Virus record (IMG/VR): IMGVR_UViG_2718218398_000003
Length of the DNA stretch: 45,775 nucleotides
Origin: a virus
Lineage: Duplodnaviria > Heunggongvirae > Uroviricota > Caudoviricetes
Direction: 5' to 3' (one strand)
Made by a program: the position numbers and the translations under genes. The notes beneath the pieces are model-generated. The model searched no databases, was not told where the DNA came from, and saw only the letters and a program-made list of their open reading frames with translations. Position 1 is the first letter of the stretch. Each line of letters begins with the position of its first letter. Below, in pieces: positions 835-45,775 of this stretch.

Positions 835-1602
835 ATGCCACAGCCGGCGCTAAAAGCGAACGAAATCAGCAGTGAATTAATCGATATTCTTGCGGCTCGG
901 AATACGATATCCGAAATGCAATATTTTCGTTATATCAGAGATATAGAAAAGTTGCGCGACAGCGCATCTGAGGACTATCTCAAAGCGTTGGCTAATGGTG
1001 CTTTTGGGCGTAAAGATACTGCAGTTGCATTCTTTGAAGAAGCATTGAAGCATAACAACCTGATCATTGCTCAAAATTATGTAGTTTATCTCAACGATTA
1101 CGGCAGCTTCCGTGAAGTTGAACAAGTGGTAAATCGATTAGTTGAACGTTATAACTCCCCTACGATGCTGTCCCATGCATGGGAAGCTAACTTGTTCTTG
1201 GGGCGTATTGACAAAGCGCTCTACTATGCTGAGAGATTGATAAGTATGGTAGATGAAAAGGAGGCTGAATTGGTTAAGCACCTCGCAGCCACAGCACTGG
1301 CCCAATCCACGACCTTCAAAAGTGCAACTGGAATTACTGATGAAGAACTACAGGATATTGCAAACCGCATAGTGGATATCATGGCTGACCATAAAGTTAG
1401 TCCTGTTGCTATGTCTTTCTGCTCTATCCCTGAAGAGCGTACGTCATCATATGTCATGGCAGTTAATACTGAAGATTCTGATGTTCTCTCTGATATGAAC
1501 TTGGATATAGCATTTTCTCTTGCAGAAAATGAAAGTTTGATTGGAAAACCCTTCAGCGTATGGTTTGAAGGGCGTTTGGAGGAACCTGCGCGTGCCAGTT
1601 AA
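835..1602 (+). CDS. hypothetical protein (255 aa), first gene of att-proximal cargo operon
   Basis: ATG preceded by AGGTGA at 5-nt spacing; 255 codons; predicted mostly helical; no recognised motif; AT-rich relative to phage core. Confidence 0.55.
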   Translation: MPQPALKANEISSELIDILAARNTISEMQYFRYIRDIEKLRDSASEDYLKALANGAFGRKDTAVAFFEEALKHNNLIIAQNYVVYLNDYGSFREVEQVVNRLVERYNSPTMLSHAWEANLFLGRIDKALYYAERLISMVDEKEAELVKHLAATALAQSTTFKSATGITDEELQDIANRIVDIMADHKVSPVAMSFCSIPEERTSSYVMAVNTEDSDVLSDMNLDIAFSLAENESLIGKPFSVWFEGRLEEPARAS

Positions 1603-2400: not shown

Positions 2401-2458
2401 TTTTGTGCCTCCATAATCATATGATTTAAAATGTTATTTTATAAAAAAGGAGTTGTAT

Positions 2459-3415
2459 ATGACCAATTTGTATAAGTTTATGGGAGCGGATATAATTGAT
2501 AAATTGATGATGGATGAAACACATATAGGAATAAAATTCTCTCATTTACATGAATATAATGATCCCTATGAGTTTTTCCTTACTATTGATTTTAATCGCG
2601 GTTCTGATGAGTTAGCATTTTACAATGAAATGATTGGCATGGTTACAAAACAACCAGCAACTTGTTTTACGAAAAGCCCTGTGATACCACCTATGTGGGC
2701 ACATTATGCAGGTAATTCTTCTGGTTTTGTAATAGAGATTAATGAGGAGAAGTTTAAAAAGTATTTGGATGAAATCGGCTTCCAGGATCATAGTTCAATA
2801 GCAGATGTTGAATATAAAGATTCTCCAGATACAGGTATTGAAGACATTCTGGCGAGAGCATTTCATATCTGTAAACCTCGTTATATCTACTGGCTACAAT
2901 CCTGTATAATGACAGCCGCATATTTGACAAAACAAACTTGCTGGAGTTATGAGCAGGAACGTCGCGTAATAATTAATGAGAAAGCACTTACTAAACTGAA
3001 TGACAATCTTATGCTCCTTCCGGTACCGATTAATTGTATAACTGGAGTTATAGTTGGGCACAAATCAAATGATTTATTAAAGCAGAAAATTCAATCTTTA
3101 GCTAAAAAGGCTAAATGTAGATATTTCGAAATGGTAATAGGAAAAACAACAACTACACCATTTCTTTTATCTCAAAATCTCAAATCACACCAATTTATTA
3201 ATGGCAATATAATACCTGCATCAAGGCAATGTAAAAAATGTTATGAGCCTTTAAACATGGAAAATAAAGTTTGTGGCTGGTGTGGAATTACTAATCATGA
3301 TGTGAAAATGGCAGAGTACCGTAATTCATTTCGAATGATAGCCAACTATGGTGGGCTGGATAAATATATATCATCCATGAATAAGATTACTGAAGAGTAT
3401 AATAAGGGTAAATAA
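2459..3415 (+). CDS. DUF2971-like protein with C-terminal CxxC...CxxC zinc ribbon (318 aa)
   Basis: ATG at 2459 with AAGGAG 6 nt upstream (track start 2453 is a TTG). N-terminal ...LYKFMGADIIDKLMMDETHIGIKFSHLHEYNDPYEFF... and later ...PMWAHYAGNSSGFVIEI... and ...CWSYEQERRVI... fit my recollection of the DUF2971 family; C-terminus has CKKCYEPLNMENKVCGWCG. Very AT-rich. Confidence 0.6.
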   Translation: MTNLYKFMGADIIDKLMMDETHIGIKFSHLHEYNDPYEFFLTIDFNRGSDELAFYNEMIGMVTKQPATCFTKSPVIPPMWAHYAGNSSGFVIEINEEKFKKYLDEIGFQDHSSIADVEYKDSPDTGIEDILARAFHICKPRYIYWLQSCIMTAAYLTKQTCWSYEQERRVIINEKALTKLNDNLMLLPVPINCITGVIVGHKSNDLLKQKIQSLAKKAKCRYFEMVIGKTTTTPFLLSQNLKSHQFINGNIIPASRQCKKCYEPLNMENKVCGWCGITNHDVKMAEYRNSFRMIANYGGLDKYISSMNKITEEYNKGK

Positions 3416-3552: not shown

Positions 3553-4737
3553 CTAACCGGTTTTAATTTCTCCATGAGGGACAACAATCCAATCTATATG
3601 ATTTTTAGTATAAATTTTAGTAGATTTCGCATCGCTATGTGCCATTCGTCCCTGCGGATCAATCCCTTGTTTATCAAATAGGTGAGCTGCCAAAGCTCTT
3701 ATTTCATGGAATGTAGGTCTTTGTTCCATTGCTAGATGATTGCATAGTCCGAGTTTGTCTCGCACGGAAGAGAATGACCGACTCAAATAATCTGGTGCAA
3801 CTTGAGTTGGGTGCGAAACCTCTTTACTGCGTTTAACATGCCGTTCTGGGATTCTATGAACGACAAAGGGACTGGCCACATTGTCACGGCTATTGTCAAT
3901 TATCCGTTTCAATTCTTCACCAATTGGTATTGCAACATGTGATGCCTCCTTTTTTTGTACTTTTTGCCTATGGATGTATAGTGTACCATATATGCCATTT
4001 TGTGGTTGTTCGAACCAAACACATCCACATAAACCGTCTTTAGGTTCGCGAATTGAGTAACGGATTCGCGATACTTCGAGTCGTGCATGTGTAGTCTGCA
4101 ATGCTAGGTCCATTGCTGTTCTTAACCATGGTGCAGCGGCCTGCCTGATAGCTATAAAATGCTCGAGTGACAGGCGCCGTCTTTTCTTCTCATCAGTCCT
4201 ACGCATTTTTTTTCTGATGGCCGGGTTATCCTGCATTAGTGATTCATCGACCGCATAAGAGAACAACTTTTTAAGAAAGCTGACCTTTCTGTTCTGCACA
4301 TTTGCGGATGCGCTGGCATGATATTTGTTGATGTAGGCATTAACGTGTTCAAGTTCGATATCGCATGCCGGAACATTTACGAAAAACGCTTTTACGCGTA
4401 GAGCGTCATTTTTCCAGTCATCTAAGGTACTCTGGGAAGGTCGTTCGTCTTCGATAATTCTGGCCATTATGTGATCGACATGTTCAGCAAATGGTTTTGC
4501 TTCTCCGGTGACCCCGCCAGATTCTCTAATAAGATTATCCACTGATGGGTATAATTCTGATCGCATCCTCAGGTTGTACTCTCTGGCGATTGCAACGGCT
4601 ATTGCCCGATCCTTACCTATATTTTTCTTTTTTCCGGTAATAAGTGTGAATTTATAAACACCTCGATCTTTATCAAAAACCAGATAATCAGGAAGATGTC
4701 TGTATTCTTTTTTACGTGGCCTTGCCGCCATGGTCAT
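3553..4737 (-). CDS. int: tyrosine site-specific integrase
   Basis: 394 aa; C-terminal catalytic region with ...HEIRALAAHLF...RMAHSDAKSTKIY... (conserved H, R and Tyr nucleophile of lambda-family integrases); adjacent to excisionase. Confidence 0.93.
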   Translation of the reverse strand: MTMAARPRKKEYRHLPDYLVFDKDRGVYKFTLITGKKKNIGKDRAIAVAIAREYNLRMRSELYPSVDNLIRESGGVTGEAKPFAEHVDHIMARIIEDERPSQSTLDDWKNDALRVKAFFVNVPACDIELEHVNAYINKYHASASANVQNRKVSFLKKLFSYAVDESLMQDNPAIRKKMRRTDEKKRRRLSLEHFIAIRQAAAPWLRTAMDLALQTTHARLEVSRIRYSIREPKDGLCGCVWFEQPQNGIYGTLYIHRQKVQKKEASHVAIPIGEELKRIIDNSRDNVASPFVVHRIPERHVKRSKEVSHPTQVAPDYLSRSFSSVRDKLGLCNHLAMEQRPTFHEIRALAAHLFDKQGIDPQGRMAHSDAKSTKIYTKNHIDWIVVPHGEIKTG

Positions 4738-5579: not shown

Positions 5580-6106
5580 TTGCGTAACTCCGATAACTCG
5601 TTAAAGCGTTCCATAAACATCCCGTAGGCATGGCCCGGTGCCAGTGGAATCACGTTGAACATCTCTGTTGCCGGGATACCTTCCAGTACAGGCCAGAAAG
5701 AGCCATCATCAAGCCCGAGATCGCGGCGTTCGGTTGCCAGCATGATGAGATCGGCATATTTCACGGGCGTACTCATAACTGGGGGTAACCCGTATTTCTC
5801 ACGGATTACGGCGTCTATTTTTTCTTCCATTTGTTTATAGTCAGGAAGAAGGCGTTTCAGTGGTGCGGGAATGTCCTGGCAATACGCTTCTGTTGCATCA
5901 TGCATTAACGCTTCAAAAGCAAATTCCTGCGGCACCAACTGGCTGCAAAGAACCGCATGTTGGGCGACGCTGTAGAAGTGCGAAAGATGACCGGCAAAGC
6001 GACAGATATTTGAAAGGGAAACCGCGATATCGTTAATATCGATGTCGTCTTTATTTATCCTGTCATAATAAAAATGCTTCCCGGAAAAAGTTTTAATAAA
6101 TGACAT
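5570..6106 (-). CDS. HD-domain phosphohydrolase (YfdR-like 5'-nucleotidase family)
   Basis: Contains H...HD metal-binding motif (...VAQHAVLCSQ...ALMHDATEAY...). Start placed at internal ATG (MSFIKTF) with GGAG 7 nt upstream; track ORF begins 27 nt earlier. Confidence 0.75.
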   Translation of the reverse strand: MSFIKTFSGKHFYYDRINKDDIDINDIAVSLSNICRFAGHLSHFYSVAQHAVLCSQLVPQEFAFEALMHDATEAYCQDIPAPLKRLLPDYKQMEEKIDAVIREKYGLPPVMSTPVKYADLIMLATERRDLGLDDGSFWPVLEGIPATEMFNVIPLAPGHAYGMFMERFNELSELRKCA

Positions 6107-6233
6107 TTTGTTCTCCACGTATATGCGCTGCACCGCGCTGAATTTTGGTTAAAGAAAACCCTCGCCATCAGGCGATTATTGAGTTAATTACGTTTCCATA
6201 AATGCCCCCGCAGGGGCATTTGCAGTAATGAAA

Positions 6234-7058
6234 TCAGGCGGTGAAAGTACCAATAAAGGTTTCTACTTTGCTGTCTTTGAATTTTTCAACAAGCAGATCA
6301 CGAAATTCGTTAGCCATTTCTTCCTGTACTGCTTCCAGCTGAATAATGCGCAGAACCAGTACAGGGCGATCACCAGTGATAATGCTGAGGCGTAATTTAA
6401 ACGGACGTTCTTTCAGGCCTTCAAACGGAACGCATTTAAACTCAAATGCTACTGGCATAATGTCTTTGGTTTTCGCTTCGACAGACTCCATCAGAGAGCG
6501 TTTGCCGCTGAAGTCATTGTCTTCAAAATCAGCGGTCTGGTTTGCTTCAATCGTGATTTTACGGACCGCCGCAGCCGCTTTTGTTGCCTGAATGGCGTCA
6601 CCATTAGCATCAAAGCCCACAAGGTAGTCGGCCCAGTCTTCAATCCATTCTGCCAGTGACTTCTGGGAGTTACGCTCGCCGTTAACAGACAACAGGGCAG
6701 AGAACGGTGCTGTCTTTTTCAGTTTGAGAGTGGCGGTGTTATCTGCGTGACCTGGTTCATCAATAGTACCCAGGTTAAGCACACTGACGGCTCGCATATT
6801 ATCAGCATCGATAAAGCAGCGGGTGCCTTCATCTGCAAGATCTTTAGAATAACGGGTAAAGTCATCGATGCTGGCAGTGGAAAGCGCACCACGGAAACGG
6901 AAGCGATTTAAATTAAATTTTTCCAGATCATGAATGCGGAAATTCTCAGGCAATGCCACAGCATCGGCACCAATCTTACTGATAATTTCATTAACACCCT
7001 GAGCAGAAATAAGGGCATGGATTTGATTAATTGCGGTTGCGTCTAAGTTCTGAGACAT
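6234..7058 (-). CDS. DUF2303/YfdQ-like phage protein
   Basis: 274 aa; resembles my recollection of the CPS-53 yfdQ product in sequence and length; function unknown. Confidence 0.7.
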
Positions 7059-15852: not shown

Positions 15853-16716
15853 TTAAGCTGGTCGTCTACGTTTAACTTTTTTGATAGCATAACGGTTTGT
15901 TACGCCACGCGCAGTAAATGTTTTTGTTGTTTCTAAATCAACAACATAAAGGTCCTCTTTTGAAAATTGTACTGTTGCAGCCTGAACCTGCGAAAGGAAA
16001 ACATTGTCATCTAGGCTTACTGAATGTTCTTCACCAAGATAATCAATTCGCCATCCCTTATTCCCTTCAAAGTTTACTTGAATGAATCTGACGTTAACCT
16101 CATCAATAGAAACTTCTTTTTCTAGTAAAGTACCACGTGGTAGTGGTTTGATTTCTTCAGTTTCTTCTCCTTCAAGCTTGAGAATCTCTTCTCCATTATC
16201 ATCAGTAATTTTGAAGATCGGGCGCTCTTTACCATCTAGTGGTGCTCTAACTACGTTAACTAAGGCTTGTCGTATTTCGGGATCAGTCACTAACTTTGCA
16301 ACAGCCTCATGACAAATAATTTCTTCTCCATCAAGTTCTAATACTGCTTCTTGTGTGTCGACCTTTCGAGTAACAGAAATAACCTTTCTACTCCCCAATT
16401 GTCGAATCAATGCAAGAGCTGAGCCACCAGCTAATGCACCACCAGCAACAGTGAGTCCAATTGCTTTGGCGACATCGACAGCATGAGGAACTAACTCTTG
16501 CATTGAATAAATAACACCGATTGATCCAGGTGCAGCAGGAGCGGTAACCATCAATTTGACTGTTTCCTGCCCATCATTAAGATTTCGATCCGCCTTTGCA
16601 ATAAGGTCAGCCATAGACCCTATTGATAAACTTAGTGTTTTTGCATCAATCTTATGCTGTGCTAATTCTTCATCTTCGGCATCATAGAAGACTTTGAAAG
16701 TGGTAGAACTATCCAA
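15853..16716 (-). CDS. hypothetical protein (287 aa), first gene of accessory cassette
   Basis: TTG start with GAGG 5 nt upstream; internal Gly/Ala-rich hydrophobic stretch AIGLTVAGGALAGGSALALI; acidic repeats; no recognised catalytic motif. Confidence 0.6.
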   Translation of the reverse strand: MDSSTTFKVFYDAEDEELAQHKIDAKTLSLSIGSMADLIAKADRNLNDGQETVKLMVTAPAAPGSIGVIYSMQELVPHAVDVAKAIGLTVAGGALAGGSALALIRQLGSRKVISVTRKVDTQEAVLELDGEEIICHEAVAKLVTDPEIRQALVNVVRAPLDGKERPIFKITDDNGEEILKLEGEETEEIKPLPRGTLLEKEVSIDEVNVRFIQVNFEGNKGWRIDYLGEEHSVSLDDNVFLSQVQAATVQFSKEDLYVVDLETTKTFTARGVTNRYAIKKVKRRRPA

Positions 16717-39658: not shown

Positions 39659-42600
39659 ATGGCAGTACGGATTTCAGGTGTACTGAAAGATGGCGCAGGT
39701 AAGCCGATACAAAACTGCACCATTCAGCTAAAGGCCAGGCGCAACAGCACCACGGTGGTGGTGAACACGCTGGCCTCAGAAAATCCGGATGAAGCCGGGC
39801 GTTACAGCATGGACGTTGAGTACGGTCAGTACAGCGTTATTCTGTTGGTGGAAGGCTTCCCGCCGTCACATGCCGGGACCATCACCGTGTATGAAGATTC
39901 CCGACCCGGTACGCTGAATGATTTTCTCGGTGCCATGACGGAGGATGATGCCCGTCCTGAGGCACTGCGCCGTTTTGAACTGATGGTGGAAGAGGTGGCG
40001 CGTAACGCGTCTGCGGTGGCACAGAACACGGCAGCCGCGAAGAAGTCAGCCAGCGATGCCAGCACATCAGCCCGTGAGGCGGCAACCCATGCGACTGATG
40101 CTGCAGGCTCAGCACGCGCAGCCAGCACGTCAGCCGGACAGGCCGCGTCGTCGGCTCAGTCAGCGACTTCCAGCGCAGGAACGGCATCAACAAAGGCTAC
40201 TGAAGCATCAAAAAGTGCTGCCGCTGCAGAGTCCTCAAAAAGCGCGGCAGCTACCAGTGCCAGTGCCGCGAAAACGTCAGAAACGAATGCTGCAGCGTCA
40301 CAACAATCAGCAGCCACTTCTGCATCCACCGCAACTACGAAAGCGTCAGAAGCTGCCACCTCAGCCCGGGATGCGGCGGCTTCAAAAGAGGCGGCAAAAT
40401 CATCAGAAACGAACGCATCCTCGAGCGCCAGTAACGCAGCTTCCTCGGCAACAGCGGCAGGAAATTCCGCGAAGGCGGCAAAAACGTCAGAGACGAACGC
40501 CAGGTCTTCTGAAACGGCAGCGGGACAGAGCGCCTCGGCTGCGGCAGGCTCAAAAACAGCGGCTGCGTCGTCTGCCAGTGCAGCGTCAACAAGTGCCGGG
40601 CAGGCCTCAGCCAGTGCCACCGCCGCCGGAAAATCGGCAGAAAGCGCCGCATCGTCTGCTTCAACAGCCACAACGAAGGCTGACGAAGCCACTGAACAGG
40701 CCAGCGCAGCAGCGAGGTCTGCTTCCGCAGCGAAGACATCCGAAACGAACGCGAAAGCGTCGGAAACCAGCGCAGAATCCTCAAAAACGGCTGCCGCATC
40801 GTCAGCCAGTTCGGCGTCGTCATCGGCATCATCTGCGTCTGCTTCAAAAGATGAGGCGACCAGACAGGCGTCAGCAGCGAAGAGCAGCGCCACGACGGCA
40901 TCCACGAAGGCAACAGAGGCGGCAGGCAGTGCGACGGCAGCATCTCAGAGCAAAACTACTGCTGAATCCGCTGCGACCCGTGCGGAAGCTGCTGCTGATC
41001 GTGCTGAAGAGATTGCCGGTGCAGTTGCGATGGAAGACGCAAGCCTTACAACTAAAGGTGTTGTGAAACTTAGCAGTGCTGTTGATAGCACCAGTGAATC
41101 GCTGGCCGCAACGCCAAAAGCAGTTAAAGCAGCCAATGACAATGCGAATAGCAGGGTGCCATCTAACCGAAAAGTTAACGGAAAAGCACTGACTGCGGAT
41201 ATAACATTAACGCCGAAAGATATTGGTACTTTAAATTCAGTAACGATGTCTTTCTCTGGCGGGGCTGGGTGGTTCAAACTGGCTACGGTTACCATGCCAC
41301 AAGCGAGTTCCATCGTTTACATCGCATTGATTGGTGGCGCTGGTTACAACGTCGGTTCCCCACATCAGGCAGGCATTTCAGAACTGGTTCTACGAGCAGG
41401 CAATGGAAACCCCAAAGGAATTACCGGGGCTTTGTGGAAGCGTACAGCCGTCGGATTAACGAATTTCGCCTGGATCAACACATCCGGCGATACATATGAT
41501 ATTTACGTTGAGATTGGCAATTATGCGACGAGTGTAAATATCCATTGGGATTGTACTGCAAATGCGTCAGTTTCTGTTTATACCTCGCCAACATATTCAG
41601 CGAGTAAGCCTTCCAGCGTTACCTATGGTGTTGTTTATACGATGTATAGCTCACATCAGAAACCTACACCATCAGATATTGGAGCACTGCCAACAACCGG
41701 AGGAACAGTTTCAGGTCCGTTGTCTGTTACAGGTGGATTAACTGGTTCATTGAATGGTAATGCAAGTACAGCCACGAAATTGCAGACGGCAAGATCTATC
41801 GGTGGAGTTGTTTTCGACGGTTCTGCAAATATTAACCTTCCAGGTGTAAACACTACGGGTAATCAGAACACCACTGGTAATGCTGCAACTGCTACAAAAC
41901 TTCAGACTGCAAGAAAAATATCCGGTGTTCCATTTGATGGTTCTACTGATATCACTTTAACCGCCGCGCATGTGGCTGCTTTTGCCAGAAGGGCAACGGA
42001 TACATATGCCGATGCGGATGGGGGCGTTCCCTGGAATGCCGAATCAGGCGCTTATAAGGTCACCCGCTCTGGCGACAGCTATATTCTGGTTAACTTCTAT
42101 ACCGGAGTCGGAAGTTGCCGGACCTTGCAGATGAAGGCGCATTACAGAAATGGTGGTCTGTTCTACCGTTCTTCAAGAGACGGTTATGGTTTTGAGGAAG
42201 ACTGGGCAGAAGTTTATACCTCGAAAAATCTTCCACCAGAAAGCTACCCAGTCGGCGCACCAATCCCGTGGCCATCAGATACCGTTCCGTCTGGTTATGC
42301 CCTGATGCAGGGGCAGACTTTTGACAAATCTGCCTACCCGAAACTTGCAGCCGCTTATCCGTCAGGCGTGATCCCTGATATGCGTGGCTGGACGATTAAG
42401 GGCAAGCCCGCCAGTGGTCGTGCCGTATTGTCTCAGGAACAGGACGGCATAAAATCGCATACCCACAGCGCCAGCGCATCCAGTACTGATTTGGGGACGA
42501 AAACCACATCGTCGTTTGATTACGGCACTAAATCCACGAATAACACTGGTGCGCATACCCATAGTGTTAGCGGTACGGCTGCTTCAGCCGGTGCACATAC

Positions 42601-42886
42601 CCATTCGATGACATTTGTTTCAGGTGGTTCCAGTGGTGCTCCGGGAAGTGGATCACCTGATTATTCTAAATACAGTGTTAACACTTCTTCTGCAGGCGCT
42701 CATACGCACTCTGTATCGGGTACTGCTGCAAGCGCAGGTGCACACGCACATACTGTAGGTATTGGTGCGCATACGCACTCGGTTGCGATTGGTTCACATG
42801 GACACACCATCACCGTTAACGCTGCTGGTAACGCGGAAAACACCGTCAAAAACATCGCATTTAACTATATTGTGAGGCTTGCATAA
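39659..42886 (+). CDS. stf: side tail fibre protein (Stf) with long Ala/Ser/Thr-rich repeat region and His-rich C-terminal repeats
   Basis: 1075 aa; N-terminus [30 protein letters not shown]... like lambdoid Stf; central low-complexity repeats (...[11 protein letters not shown]...); C-terminal repeated ...[20 protein letters not shown]... motifs; followed by tfa. Confidence 0.9.
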
Positions 42887-43470
42887 TGGCATTCAGAATG
42901 AGTGAACAAGCACGGACCATAAAAATTTATAATCTGCTGTCCGGAACTAATGAATTTATTGGTGAAGGTGATGCATATATTCCGCCTCATACAGGTCTGC
43001 CAGCAAACAGTACCGACATTGCACCGCCAGATATTCCAGCTGGCTTCGTGGCTGTTTTCAACAGTGATGAGTTATCGTGGCATCTCGTTGAAGATCATCG
43101 GGGTAAAACGGTTTATGACGTGGCTTCCGGCGACGCGTTATTTATTTCTGAACTCGGTCCGTTACCGGAAAATGTCACCTGGTTATCCCCGGAAGGGGAG
43201 TTTCAGAAGTGGAACGGCACAGCCTGGGTGAAAGATGCAGAAGCAGAAAAACTGTTCCGGATCCGGGAGGCGGAAGAAACAAAAAACAGCCTGATGCAGG
43301 CAGCGAATGAGCATATTGCGCCACTTCAGGATGCTGTAGATCTGGAAATCGCAACGGAGGAAGAAAACTCGTTGCTGGAAGCCTGGAAAAAGTATCGGGT
43401 GTTGCTGAACCGTGTTGATACATCAGTAGCACCGGATATTGAGTGGCCTGCTGTCCCTGTTATGGAGTAA
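42886..43470 (+). CDS. tfa: tail fibre assembly protein (Tfa)
   Basis: 194 aa; [54 protein letters not shown]... classic Tfa signature; start overlaps the stf stop. Confidence 0.9.
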
Positions 43471-43573
43471 TCGTTTTGAGATACGCCGCATACACGTTGT
43501 ATGCAATAACGTGCTGCGGCTTGGTAAATTTTAGCTAGTTTCAGCAGGAGACATAAAAAACTTCAATATAAGA

Positions 43574-44361
43574 TTAAGCATCACGTATTGCCAACCTGAT
43601 TTTTGACTGATACCAATTGGGGCCTTCTGCAATTATTTCTTCCTCAACATGCATGATGGGATGCATTTCAATTTCAGAGTTTTTGACTTTTAGATCTAGT
43701 CCATATTTTTTTGAAATTTGTAAAACTTCATTTTTGAAATCCTTATCTGCGAAAGGTGAAATCCTTATTTCTTCCAACAGATTATTAAGAGATACAGGGA
43801 CTAGTTTTCCCTTTACAGGTGGAGTGTTAAAGGTATTCTCTTGAAAAATAGCTCTAAACTCTTTTTCGTGTTCGAAAGATGGTCTCTTGTTAAAGAATAC
43901 ATCTGATTCTGGATTGTATTGTTTTATCCAGAAATTTTTGACGTATTTTACGTGTTTTAATTGTAGTTTGTTTAGATTATTATTTTCAAGTTGGCTTTGG
44001 AGGTTTTTTTCTTTGATTTTATGACAACGCCTTTAGCGGGGTTTTTACAATACAGCTTCCACATAGCTTCAGATTCATGTTCGTTACAATGCCAGCAACT
44101 TATATATGTCCTCTCGCTTATTTCCTTAAGTGTCTTTAAATTGAATGCCATGAAAGGCTCTAAGTCCATGCCGGCACCATGAGTAGCGCATAGTTTTTCC
44201 TGTGTCTCAATGAATTTTTTATAGCCAGTATGTCCCCAAGCAAATTCACCTTCGAACGGATCTTCAAAATTTTTTGCTGAGCAAAAAAATAAAGCATTTT
44301 GTTCGAGTAACATAGAGAATTTCTCTATGTCAAGATATCGCCATATATACTCAGTGTGCAT
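43574..44361 (-). pseudogene. DUF2971-like gene disrupted by a frameshift in an A7 tract (paralogous in family to 2459-3415)
   Basis: ATG at 44361 with AGGAG 5 nt upstream; N-terminus MHTEYIWRYLDIEKFSMLLEQNALFFCSAKNFEDPFEGEF... and ...CWHCNEHESEAMWKLYCKNPAKGVVIK fit DUF2971. This frame stops at 43972, but a second frame is open without stops from 44032 to 43574 and continues with ...HEKEFRAIF... The frames switch at AAGAAAAAAACC (about 44003-44011). Confidence 0.55.
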
Positions 44362-44572
44362 GATAGCTCCTTGCAATATAACTATTTCTATCTGTTCATT
44401 TGTACTTAAAAAGGATTGAGTAGCCCGAACAGTTCTATCCGTAAATATACCAGATAGAAGAGTTGTACAATAACAAATCCTCCGTATAAGAACCAGCCAT
44501 AATAGTCTGGTTCTTAAGGTTTTTTTGTTCGAGGGGTTTTAACCTACGATTCGTCCCCATATCGGCGATAAA

Positions 44573-45775
44573 TTAGGCTTGTACCAACGCTTCTGTTTCT
44601 GTGAGTGAAATCTGATAGCGTTTTACTGCCTCAGCAAAGGCGTGCGCGGCATCTGCATTTGATACCATATATTCTTCAGTTACCCCTGTTTGAGAATGGA
44701 AAGTAATATTTCCATAAATGCAAATAGGGATTTGGTAGTTGTCTTTAAAACGACGGTCTGGTGAGCCATTCTTATTCGTTTTCGCCCATGTATAACCATC
44801 TATGCGTGAGTCACTGGGAACACCTTCTTCCTCATGGAATCTTAGATATTCTGAACTAATTTGTAATTCGCGTAAATCAATCAGAGCGAATGCTCCATCG
44901 GCTCGTGGTATGACTGCAACTCCAGGATAAAGCAAAATATCGTCTCCATTTGCATTTTCAAACCTCATCGCACGCCCTGTAAATTGAATGAGATCCGTTG
45001 AACTAAAATCAAAGGTAACTGGGTGACGATTAACAGACCGGGTTGCTAATGTTCTTTCAGCAAACTGGTCTGTAGCTTTATCTGCAGTAATATCCCATTT
45101 TTTGACACTCGATTTTAACATATCAAATGCATGGACCATCGCTGCATATGCGCGCTGTGAAGCATCACTGCTCTCGAATGTTATGGCTATTTTTGTGCTG
45201 TCTTCCCATGAAACTAGGCGAGATATCTCAGCTTGGGTTAGGGGGAGTAGTGTCTCAAGTTCTGCGATGCGTCGTTTGTAAAACCAACGGAATAGACTTG
45301 ATTTGCGTCGAGCCAGCTCGCTTTTTTGTTTTGATTCTTCGGCAAGAGCCTCTTGAAGATCTGCTTTTATCTCTGCTCTTTGTTCTCGTGCTTTAGCAAT
45401 CAAATCTCGTAAAGGTAAAAGGGAGGTACTTGTAAGGACTTCTACCGAAGCGCTGGATATTTCATTCATGCCAGCTACAGGCATATATATTTTAGCGTTC
45501 GATGGTGTGTTTTCTGGAGATGACCCAGACCCCAAATGAGGTTCTGTAGGGGCTGGATTTAATGGATTGGTAACTGAGTATCCATCATCATAGGGCAAGG
45601 TAGGTGTAGTATAAGATAAGCCTGTGCCCGGTAATCCGACAGTTGCTCTAACCCCTTTTTTACCAACATTGACAGTTGCGCCAGGCATGCCAATGCTTGC
45701 ACTTATTCCACGCTTGCCAATGTTGAGTCGAACGCCAGGAAATAAAGTAAAGGTTTGTCTGAAACGAAGAGACAT
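44573..45775 (-). CDS. DUF4236-domain protein (400 aa); start codon at the window edge
   Basis: N-terminus MSLRFRQTFTLFPGVRLNIGKRGISASIGMPGATVNVGKKGVRATVGLPGTGLSYTT matches the DUF4236 signature as recalled; remaining 340 aa has a predicted coiled-coil segment and no recognised catalytic motif. Confidence 0.65.
   Translation of the reverse strand: MSLRFRQTFTLFPGVRLNIGKRGISASIGMPGATVNVGKKGVRATVGLPGTGLSYTTPTLPYDDGYSVTNPLNPAPTEPHLGSGSSPENTPSNAKIYMPVAGMNEISSASVEVLTSTSLLPLRDLIAKAREQRAEIKADLQEALAEESKQKSELARRKSSLFRWFYKRRIAELETLLPLTQAEISRLVSWEDSTKIAITFESSDASQRAYAAMVHAFDMLKSSVKKWDITADKATDQFAERTLATRSVNRHPVTFDFSSTDLIQFTGRAMRFENANGDDILLYPGVAVIPRADGAFALIDLRELQISSEYLRFHEEEGVPSDSRIDGYTWAKTNKNGSPDRRFKDNYQIPICIYGNITFHSQTGVTEEYMVSNADAAHAFAEAVKRYQISLTETEALVQA

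Follow-up and report, generated by a model that had tools for sequence, protein, structure and literature searches.

The DUF2971 gene on the minus strand at positions 43574-44361 of the sequence analysed here (a 45,775-nucleotide stretch of viral DNA, hereafter the window) is interrupted by a single-base frameshift within a run of seven A residues, which bears out the central claim of a first-pass annotation made from the sequence alone. The intact allele differs solely by having eight. With A8, the disrupted DUF2971 and PDC-S31-like gene would encode 262 aa. The best reading of its present state, and in our judgement a very probable one, is recurrent and heritable pseudogenisation at a homopolymer hotspot; among the options that the annotation had raised, a decayed gene is the best supported, with the A7 allele on at least two haplotypes and further indels in the broken copies. 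On this reading, the gene belongs to the cargo of a lambdoid prophage whose insertion site lies between yejO and tRNA-Pro/yejM, and when intact it yields a stand-alone 262-aa DUF2971 protein with an ADP-ribosyltransferase (ART) fold closest to DarT. The protein would belong to a family whose members include one proven abortive-infection system that consists of a single gene, and the PADLOC candidate class PDC-S31. The window copy has lost one A from the ancestral A8 run, which shifts the frame after Lys119 and brings a stop 10 codons on, and the resulting 129-aa fragment lacks the strands bearing Y140, K159 and E166-x-E168 and so should be catalytically dead. The deletion is a vertically inherited mutation of the replication-slippage kind seen at homopolymers; it has arisen more than once in E. 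coli, and broken copies then gain further indels in the manner of unconstrained pseudogenes.

As it stands, the N-terminal ORF (43972-44361, minus strand) consists of 129 codons and a stop. It opens at an ATG at 44361 (context MHTEYIWRYLDIEKF... on the minus strand), its protein begins MHTEYIWRYLD..., and it is closed by a TAA at 43974-43972; its final 10 codons, TSKANLKIII, are an out-of-frame tail. The -1 frame of the minus strand is free of stops from 44032 to 43574, and the two frames overlap in AAGAAAAAAACC (44002-44013) around the A7 homopolymer, which lies at 44004-44010 (T7 on the plus strand), is the site of the frameshift and is A8 in the intact allele. The C-terminal coding part, in the -1 frame at 43574-44003 on the minus strand, encodes residues 120-262 of the intact protein, and conceptual translation with one A added to the run gives a continuous protein of 262 aa. 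Because the first start codon in the -1 frame is a TTG at 43777 (67 aa), with none earlier, no separate gene is encoded by the C-terminal part. Homologues 259-262 aa long, at 97-100% coverage, favour the upstream ATG at 44361 as the start, and so do the alignments of 22 and 57 sequences described below. RefSeq/PGAP places the start at the internal Met of MLLEQN (44313), giving 246 aa for the intact protein and 113 aa for the truncated one, and the latter is held in RefSeq from that Met as WP_225517690.1, a 'hypothetical protein'. The first-pass annotation had correctly given the end of the N-terminal part (43972) and the open adjacent frame (44032 to 43574, which a frame check of the minus strand found without a stop), its overlap at about 44003-44011 was essentially right, and a single-base indel does restore the frame as it proposed. 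Its two lengths need correcting: the 134 codons were counted from a TTG at 44376, where the ATG at 44361 gives 129, and the restored protein has 262 aa, not about 285.

Homologues and domain content both treat the two parts as one gene. The Pfam DUF2971 profile (PF11185) matches the fused protein with 29.4 bits (E 2.2e-6, residues 100-170, profile positions 1-88 of 89), above its gathering threshold of 22 bits, and matches neither half when each fragment is searched separately. This match bridges the frame junction (residues 117-120), and the earlier description of the C-terminal part as DUF2971-like is borne out in this form, for the fused protein only. An intact 262-aa E. coli protein matches the fused protein over 100% of its length (E 4e-172). 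Among full-length homologues, the 24 closest (248-292 aa, E <= 1e-58) align with 90-100% of the fused protein, each as a single protein and in genera that include Enterobacter, Pseudomonas and Herbaspirillum; remoter relatives in Acinetobacter and Pectobacterium are single proteins as well. The alignment to intact DUF2971 homologues that had been suggested as a check therefore runs end to end against single proteins of 254-270 aa. Residue conservation, read from alignments of 22 and 57 sequences, gave invariant positions both 5' of the shift (D34, C89, W90 and W101) and 3' of it (Y140, K159, E166, E168, R170 and P203), with Y104 nearly invariant across the 57 homologues. That the two ORFs are normally separate genes was ruled out by the intact alleles together with the homologue alignment.

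The allele was then counted in 5,426 complete E. coli genomes, of which 121 carry the gene, always as one chromosomal copy. Tract lengths were taken from exact matches to short queries centred on the tract, and the A6 genomes were identified by aligning fetched loci. The intact A8 tract is found in 83 of the 121 carriers, and in every one of these rows listed RefSeq gives the product as 'DUF2971 domain-containing protein'. A7 is found in 34 carriers (28%), for which RefSeq gives 'hypothetical protein' or nothing; A9 in one (ECO8855, 'hypothetical protein'); and A6 in two (DETEC-P169 and 98218, no RefSeq annotation), while the tract length of one carrier is unassigned. In public assemblies (NCBI, JGI/IMG, ENA and Logan), the exact truncated 129-aa product is present on 316 contigs and two full-length alleles are present on 213 and 152. 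The frameshift is thus a genuine and widespread allele and not an assembly error here, since A7 is seen in 34 independent complete genomes and its exact product on 316 contigs, and the sequencing error that had been offered as one explanation can be set aside. The proposed comparison of tract length among related strains proved informative, with A6, A7, A8 and A9 all found.

We aligned the window with 13 related loci (14 sequences in all) and found two SNP haplotypes across the gene, which differ at 44320, 43942, 43804 and 43561. On the window haplotype, A7 is carried by the window, FORC_042, PSJ-29, 65COLEC and CUVET20-1667, and A8 by OHT76-1 and 4114, in which A8 is the sole difference in the 951-bp gene region. 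In both OHT76-1 and 4114 the prophage adjoins prfC, with an unbroken DinI-like gene and a DUF4236 gene that differs in its SNPs. The other haplotype has A8 in CFS3313, A7 in CT282, 4224 (ST131) and CCUG 73778, and A6 in DETEC-P169 and 98218; 4224 and CCUG 73778 are ST131-type genomes, so that A7 is carried there on the CFS3313-type haplotype. Because SNPs that separate the haplotypes are found on either side of the tract, two or more independent losses from A8 to A7 are more parsimonious than a tiny gene conversion.

Broken copies carry further damage. A T7 run at codons 25-27 (44283-44289, minus strand) is a second indel hotspot, being T8 in four related genomes on two haplotypes; this produces a T8 and A7 compound allele in PSJ-29 and 65COLEC and a T8 and A6 compound allele in DETEC-P169 and 98218. 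CUVET20-1667, which has A7, has an extra 1-nt deletion at 43696. Throughout the 14 aligned sequences, these secondary lesions are confined to copies already out of frame, and the compound alleles contain many stop codons when translated. We regard the compound alleles as genuine because they are common to assemblies from different countries. Three single variants (the A9 of ECO8855, the A7 of CT282 and the 1-nt deletion of CUVET20-1667) may be long-read homopolymer errors, which would cut the number of independent events. The pattern in these alignments is what is expected of a constrained gene that decays once broken, and no reversal from off to on was seen among the 14 sequences. As a separate observation, FORC_042 is without one base at 44519, beside an intergenic minus-strand A run (44519-44526) upstream of the DUF2971 gene, so that indels at homopolymers in the cargo region are not limited to the gene.

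A confident structure was predicted by AlphaFold for the intact allele P0001, which is 98% identical to the conceptual fused protein (mean pLDDT 93.1, pTM 0.85). The six best Foldseek matches to this model are all DarT (E 2.5e-4 to 1e-2), and the model resembles solved ARTs in having the ADP-ribosyltransferase fold. DarT, the ssDNA thymidine ADP-ribosyltransferase toxin of DarTG systems, therefore provides the best solved-structure matches, although identity is only 9-13%, the TM-score is 0.38-0.48 and the DUF2971 protein has large helical inserts. No DarG-like macrodomain antitoxin was found beside the gene in the neighbourhoods of E. coli, Enterobacter and Pseudomonas. In agreement with this, a published analysis places DUF2971 among ART families, near DarT and AbiGi, and gives it a strictly conserved Tyr as well as an ExE motif, the latter being its motif III (PMC12522546). 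Both family motifs are present in the intact protein as Y140 and as E166 and E168. The ART-fold ExE motif is represented by the invariant E166-K-E168, with its codons at 43859-43867 on the minus strand, downstream of the frameshift; the motif stands in the context EKEFR, and E166 and E168 are invariant in the 57 homologues. The 129-aa product, which is missing the catalytic motif together with roughly half the fold, should be inactive, a prediction made because the ExE motif lies 3' of the frameshift, and the A7 allele is accordingly best regarded as a probable functional null.

The fused protein also matches four PADLOC PDC-S31 profiles (E 1.1e-21, 2.3e-10, 7e-8 and 1.7e-6), and the best of these matches spans residues 80-233 and is obtained with the fused protein only. 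PDC-S31 is a candidate class of single-gene phage defence only, and the window copy is frameshifted; a literature search found no paper describing PDC-S31. A distant family member is Aristaios, a Lactococcus DUF2971 protein that acts as a stand-alone abortive-infection system (PMC11381338, PMC13064643) and is reported to interfere with phage transcription (PMC13064643). Aristaios and the intact E. coli protein share the DUF2971 domain, a predicted ART fold and a stand-alone position on a mobile element, but Aristaios is a 316-aa protein from a Gram-positive plasmid, and the Pfam domain is the level at which the two are taken as related. We infer that the intact protein may be an NAD-dependent DNA- or RNA-modifying toxin for phage defence. 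A stand-alone, phage-borne gene with a toxin fold would fit a single-gene defence or exclusion role, and the prophage cargo positions of the DUF2971 gene in three genera provide context for this candidate role. The 90% identity cluster of P0001 also includes E. coli DUF2971 proteins of 328-329 aa, longer than the 262-aa form.

The alternative that fares best, while still unlikely in our view, is that the A run is a contingency locus at which slipped-strand mispairing reversibly moves a costly, toxin-like defence gene between an on state (A8) and an off state (A7, A9), both of them kept by selection. The frequent off allele (34 of 121 genomes, or 28% of the complete-genome carriers, and 316 contigs where the two full-length alleles total 365) and the four tract lengths from A6 to A9 would fit a selected switch, as would the occurrence of A7 on at least two haplotypes, and a toxin like DarT would plausibly carry a cost. 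Short tracts can be reversible in other bacteria, as reported for the 7C tract of M. tuberculosis glpK (10.1101/717272). The composition of the gene, however, offers an ordinary source for the run. The DUF2971 gene has a GC content of 34.5%, against 50% for the window, and uses AAA for 23 of its 30 Lys codons; the probability of a run of at least eight is 0.22 in base shuffles, 0.45 in codon-order shuffles and 0.75 in synonymous shuffles. An A8 run is thus expected from composition, and we see no sign of an evolved tract. Moreover, an Enterobacter homologue with 81% identity reads AAG AAA AAA ACA CTC at the site, that is, an in-frame A7. Runs of 8 nt mutate far more slowly in mismatch-repair-proficient E. 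coli than classical phase-variable loci do. The A8 copies of the window haplotype occur only in the prophage at the prfC site and look ancestral, given that site and the different SNPs in their neighbouring gene. The locus is therefore like phase-variable genes and other homopolymer polymorphisms in that indels in a mononucleotide run toggle the frame and several tract lengths exist, but it differs from them in that its tract is short and expected by chance, its broken copies acquire additional disabling indels and no reversion was seen. These differences are why we consider that the tract behaves as a mutational hotspot and not as an evolved switch. Of the features of on/off switching by slipped strands, which had been put forward earlier, a polymorphic tract length is present, and an excess of the tract over composition is absent in the shuffles.

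A bolder version, to which we give a little less credence again, has the A run turning a costly DarT-like abortive-infection toxin on and off, or dimming it, where lineages would toggle between A8 (defended) and A7 or A9 (undefended) or slippage on A7 would leak toxin. If true, a defence gene would be under homopolymer control in E. coli, which is not known for such phase variation. The leak by itself, in which the A7 allele would still make full-length protein by -1 ribosomal frameshifting on AAG AAA AAA or by transcriptional slippage and would be turned down and not dead, seems to us very improbable. A -1 shift at the run does yield the exact intact protein sequence, and A runs read by tRNA-Lys are intrinsically slippery in E. 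coli. Yet the in-frame motif at the tract is G AAA AAA, with no canonical X XXY YYZ slippery heptamer; no Shine-Dalgarno-like element was found upstream near the tract; and the 70 nt 3' of the tract fold at -2.3 kcal/mol (z = -1.07 against shuffles), so no stimulatory structure was detected there. A programmed -1 ribosomal frameshift was rejected on these three grounds. The A7 allele is also a single mutation from the in-frame gene, which would have left no time for a frameshift signal to evolve. Transcriptional slippage is efficient solely at runs of about 9 or more. A promoter and terminator scan of 43400-44700 found no more sites than in shuffled sequence. Finally, an error of sequencing or assembly in the window, or a pair of ORFs that are normally separate genes, is hardly credible: homopolymers are a classic place for errors and some single variants elsewhere may be such, but the identical A7 comes from genomes of many laboratories, hosts and countries, the exact truncated protein comes from several sources, the compound alleles are common to unrelated assemblies, and the gene is one continuous ORF in 83 genomes and in all distant homologues, with a Pfam domain across the junction.

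Recurrent pseudogenisation, our preferred reading, would mean that a single one-base hotspot has cost about a third of carriers their DarT-like candidate defence gene, with at least two haplotypes affected. In RefSeq the N-terminal fragment goes under 'hypothetical protein' and not as a pseudogene, and with this label and the internal-Met start, surveys of E. coli defence systems would miscount the locus. The alleles also form a small natural data set on how easily prophage-borne defence genes of toxin type are inactivated while the DUF4236 neighbour stays intact, and they provide matched on and off alleles with which the role of the DUF2971/PDC-S31 protein could be tested.

The gene lies in an AT-rich cargo region that starts after the tail fibre assembly gene (42886-43470, plus strand; Pfam Caudo_TAP, E 3e-45), the last structural gene, which is itself preceded by the tail fibre gene (39659-42886). 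The upstream neighbour is a DUF4236 protein gene (44573-45775, minus strand; Pfam DUF4236, E 7e-21), a 400-aa ORF that runs from the window edge. This gene is intact in 13 of 13 annotated E. coli loci, with a length of 1,203 bp (400 aa; WP_001351450.1 in 12 loci and WP_039264498.1 in ECO8855). In related genomes the order after the DUF2971 gene is DUF4236, DinI-like gene, tRNA-Pro and yejM, and the left flank of the window holds yejO-type autotransporter sequence and an integrase. The gene had been placed at the right prophage end; the true right end lies beyond the window, as the gene order of the related genomes shows. We also considered an obligate two-gene system of DUF4236 and DUF2971, which the neighbours of two homologues rule out: the Enterobacter homologue occupies the end of a P2-like prophage, by itself behind Ogr/Delta (CAT is also a neighbour), and the Pseudomonas homologue is in a different prophage region with unrelated neighbours and no adjoining DUF4236. 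A search of the DUF2971 gene region against a collection of sequenced phages returned no match.

The window contains another DUF2971 gene near its left end (2453-3415, plus strand; 320 aa, Pfam DUF2971 E 1.8e-9), beside the integrase (3553-4737, minus strand). The two DUF2971 genes were rejected as recent paralogues, since the identity between them is only 21%, across 67 aa near the ExE motif (E 0.006). A 51%-identical homologue in Pseudomonas nitroreducens similarly has a second, different DUF2971 gene about 3 kb away in a prophage-like region (2248-2910 and 6001-6780 of locus L016), and such pairing on one element may recur. Elsewhere in the prophage, a 287-aa ORF (15853-16716, minus strand) has no Pfam match and matches PADLOC PDC-S42 over nearly its full length (E 9.8e-33). 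In the left flank, a 255-aa ORF (835-1602, plus strand) has weak TPR-type Pfam matches, all under gathering thresholds, and the left flank of related genomes holds a recombinase and a yejO-type autotransporter fragment. The DinI-like gene, which lies outside the window between DUF4236 and tRNA-Pro (about 1141-1397 of the related loci), is annotated as frameshifted in 10 of 10 related loci at the yejM/tRNA-Pro site (L001-L004 and L007-L012) and is intact in both prophages at the prfC site. In three aligned proL-site loci the gene has lost 1 nt in ACTAAAATG, and the DinI-like gene of FORC_042 has an additional 8-bp duplication (GTTACACG).
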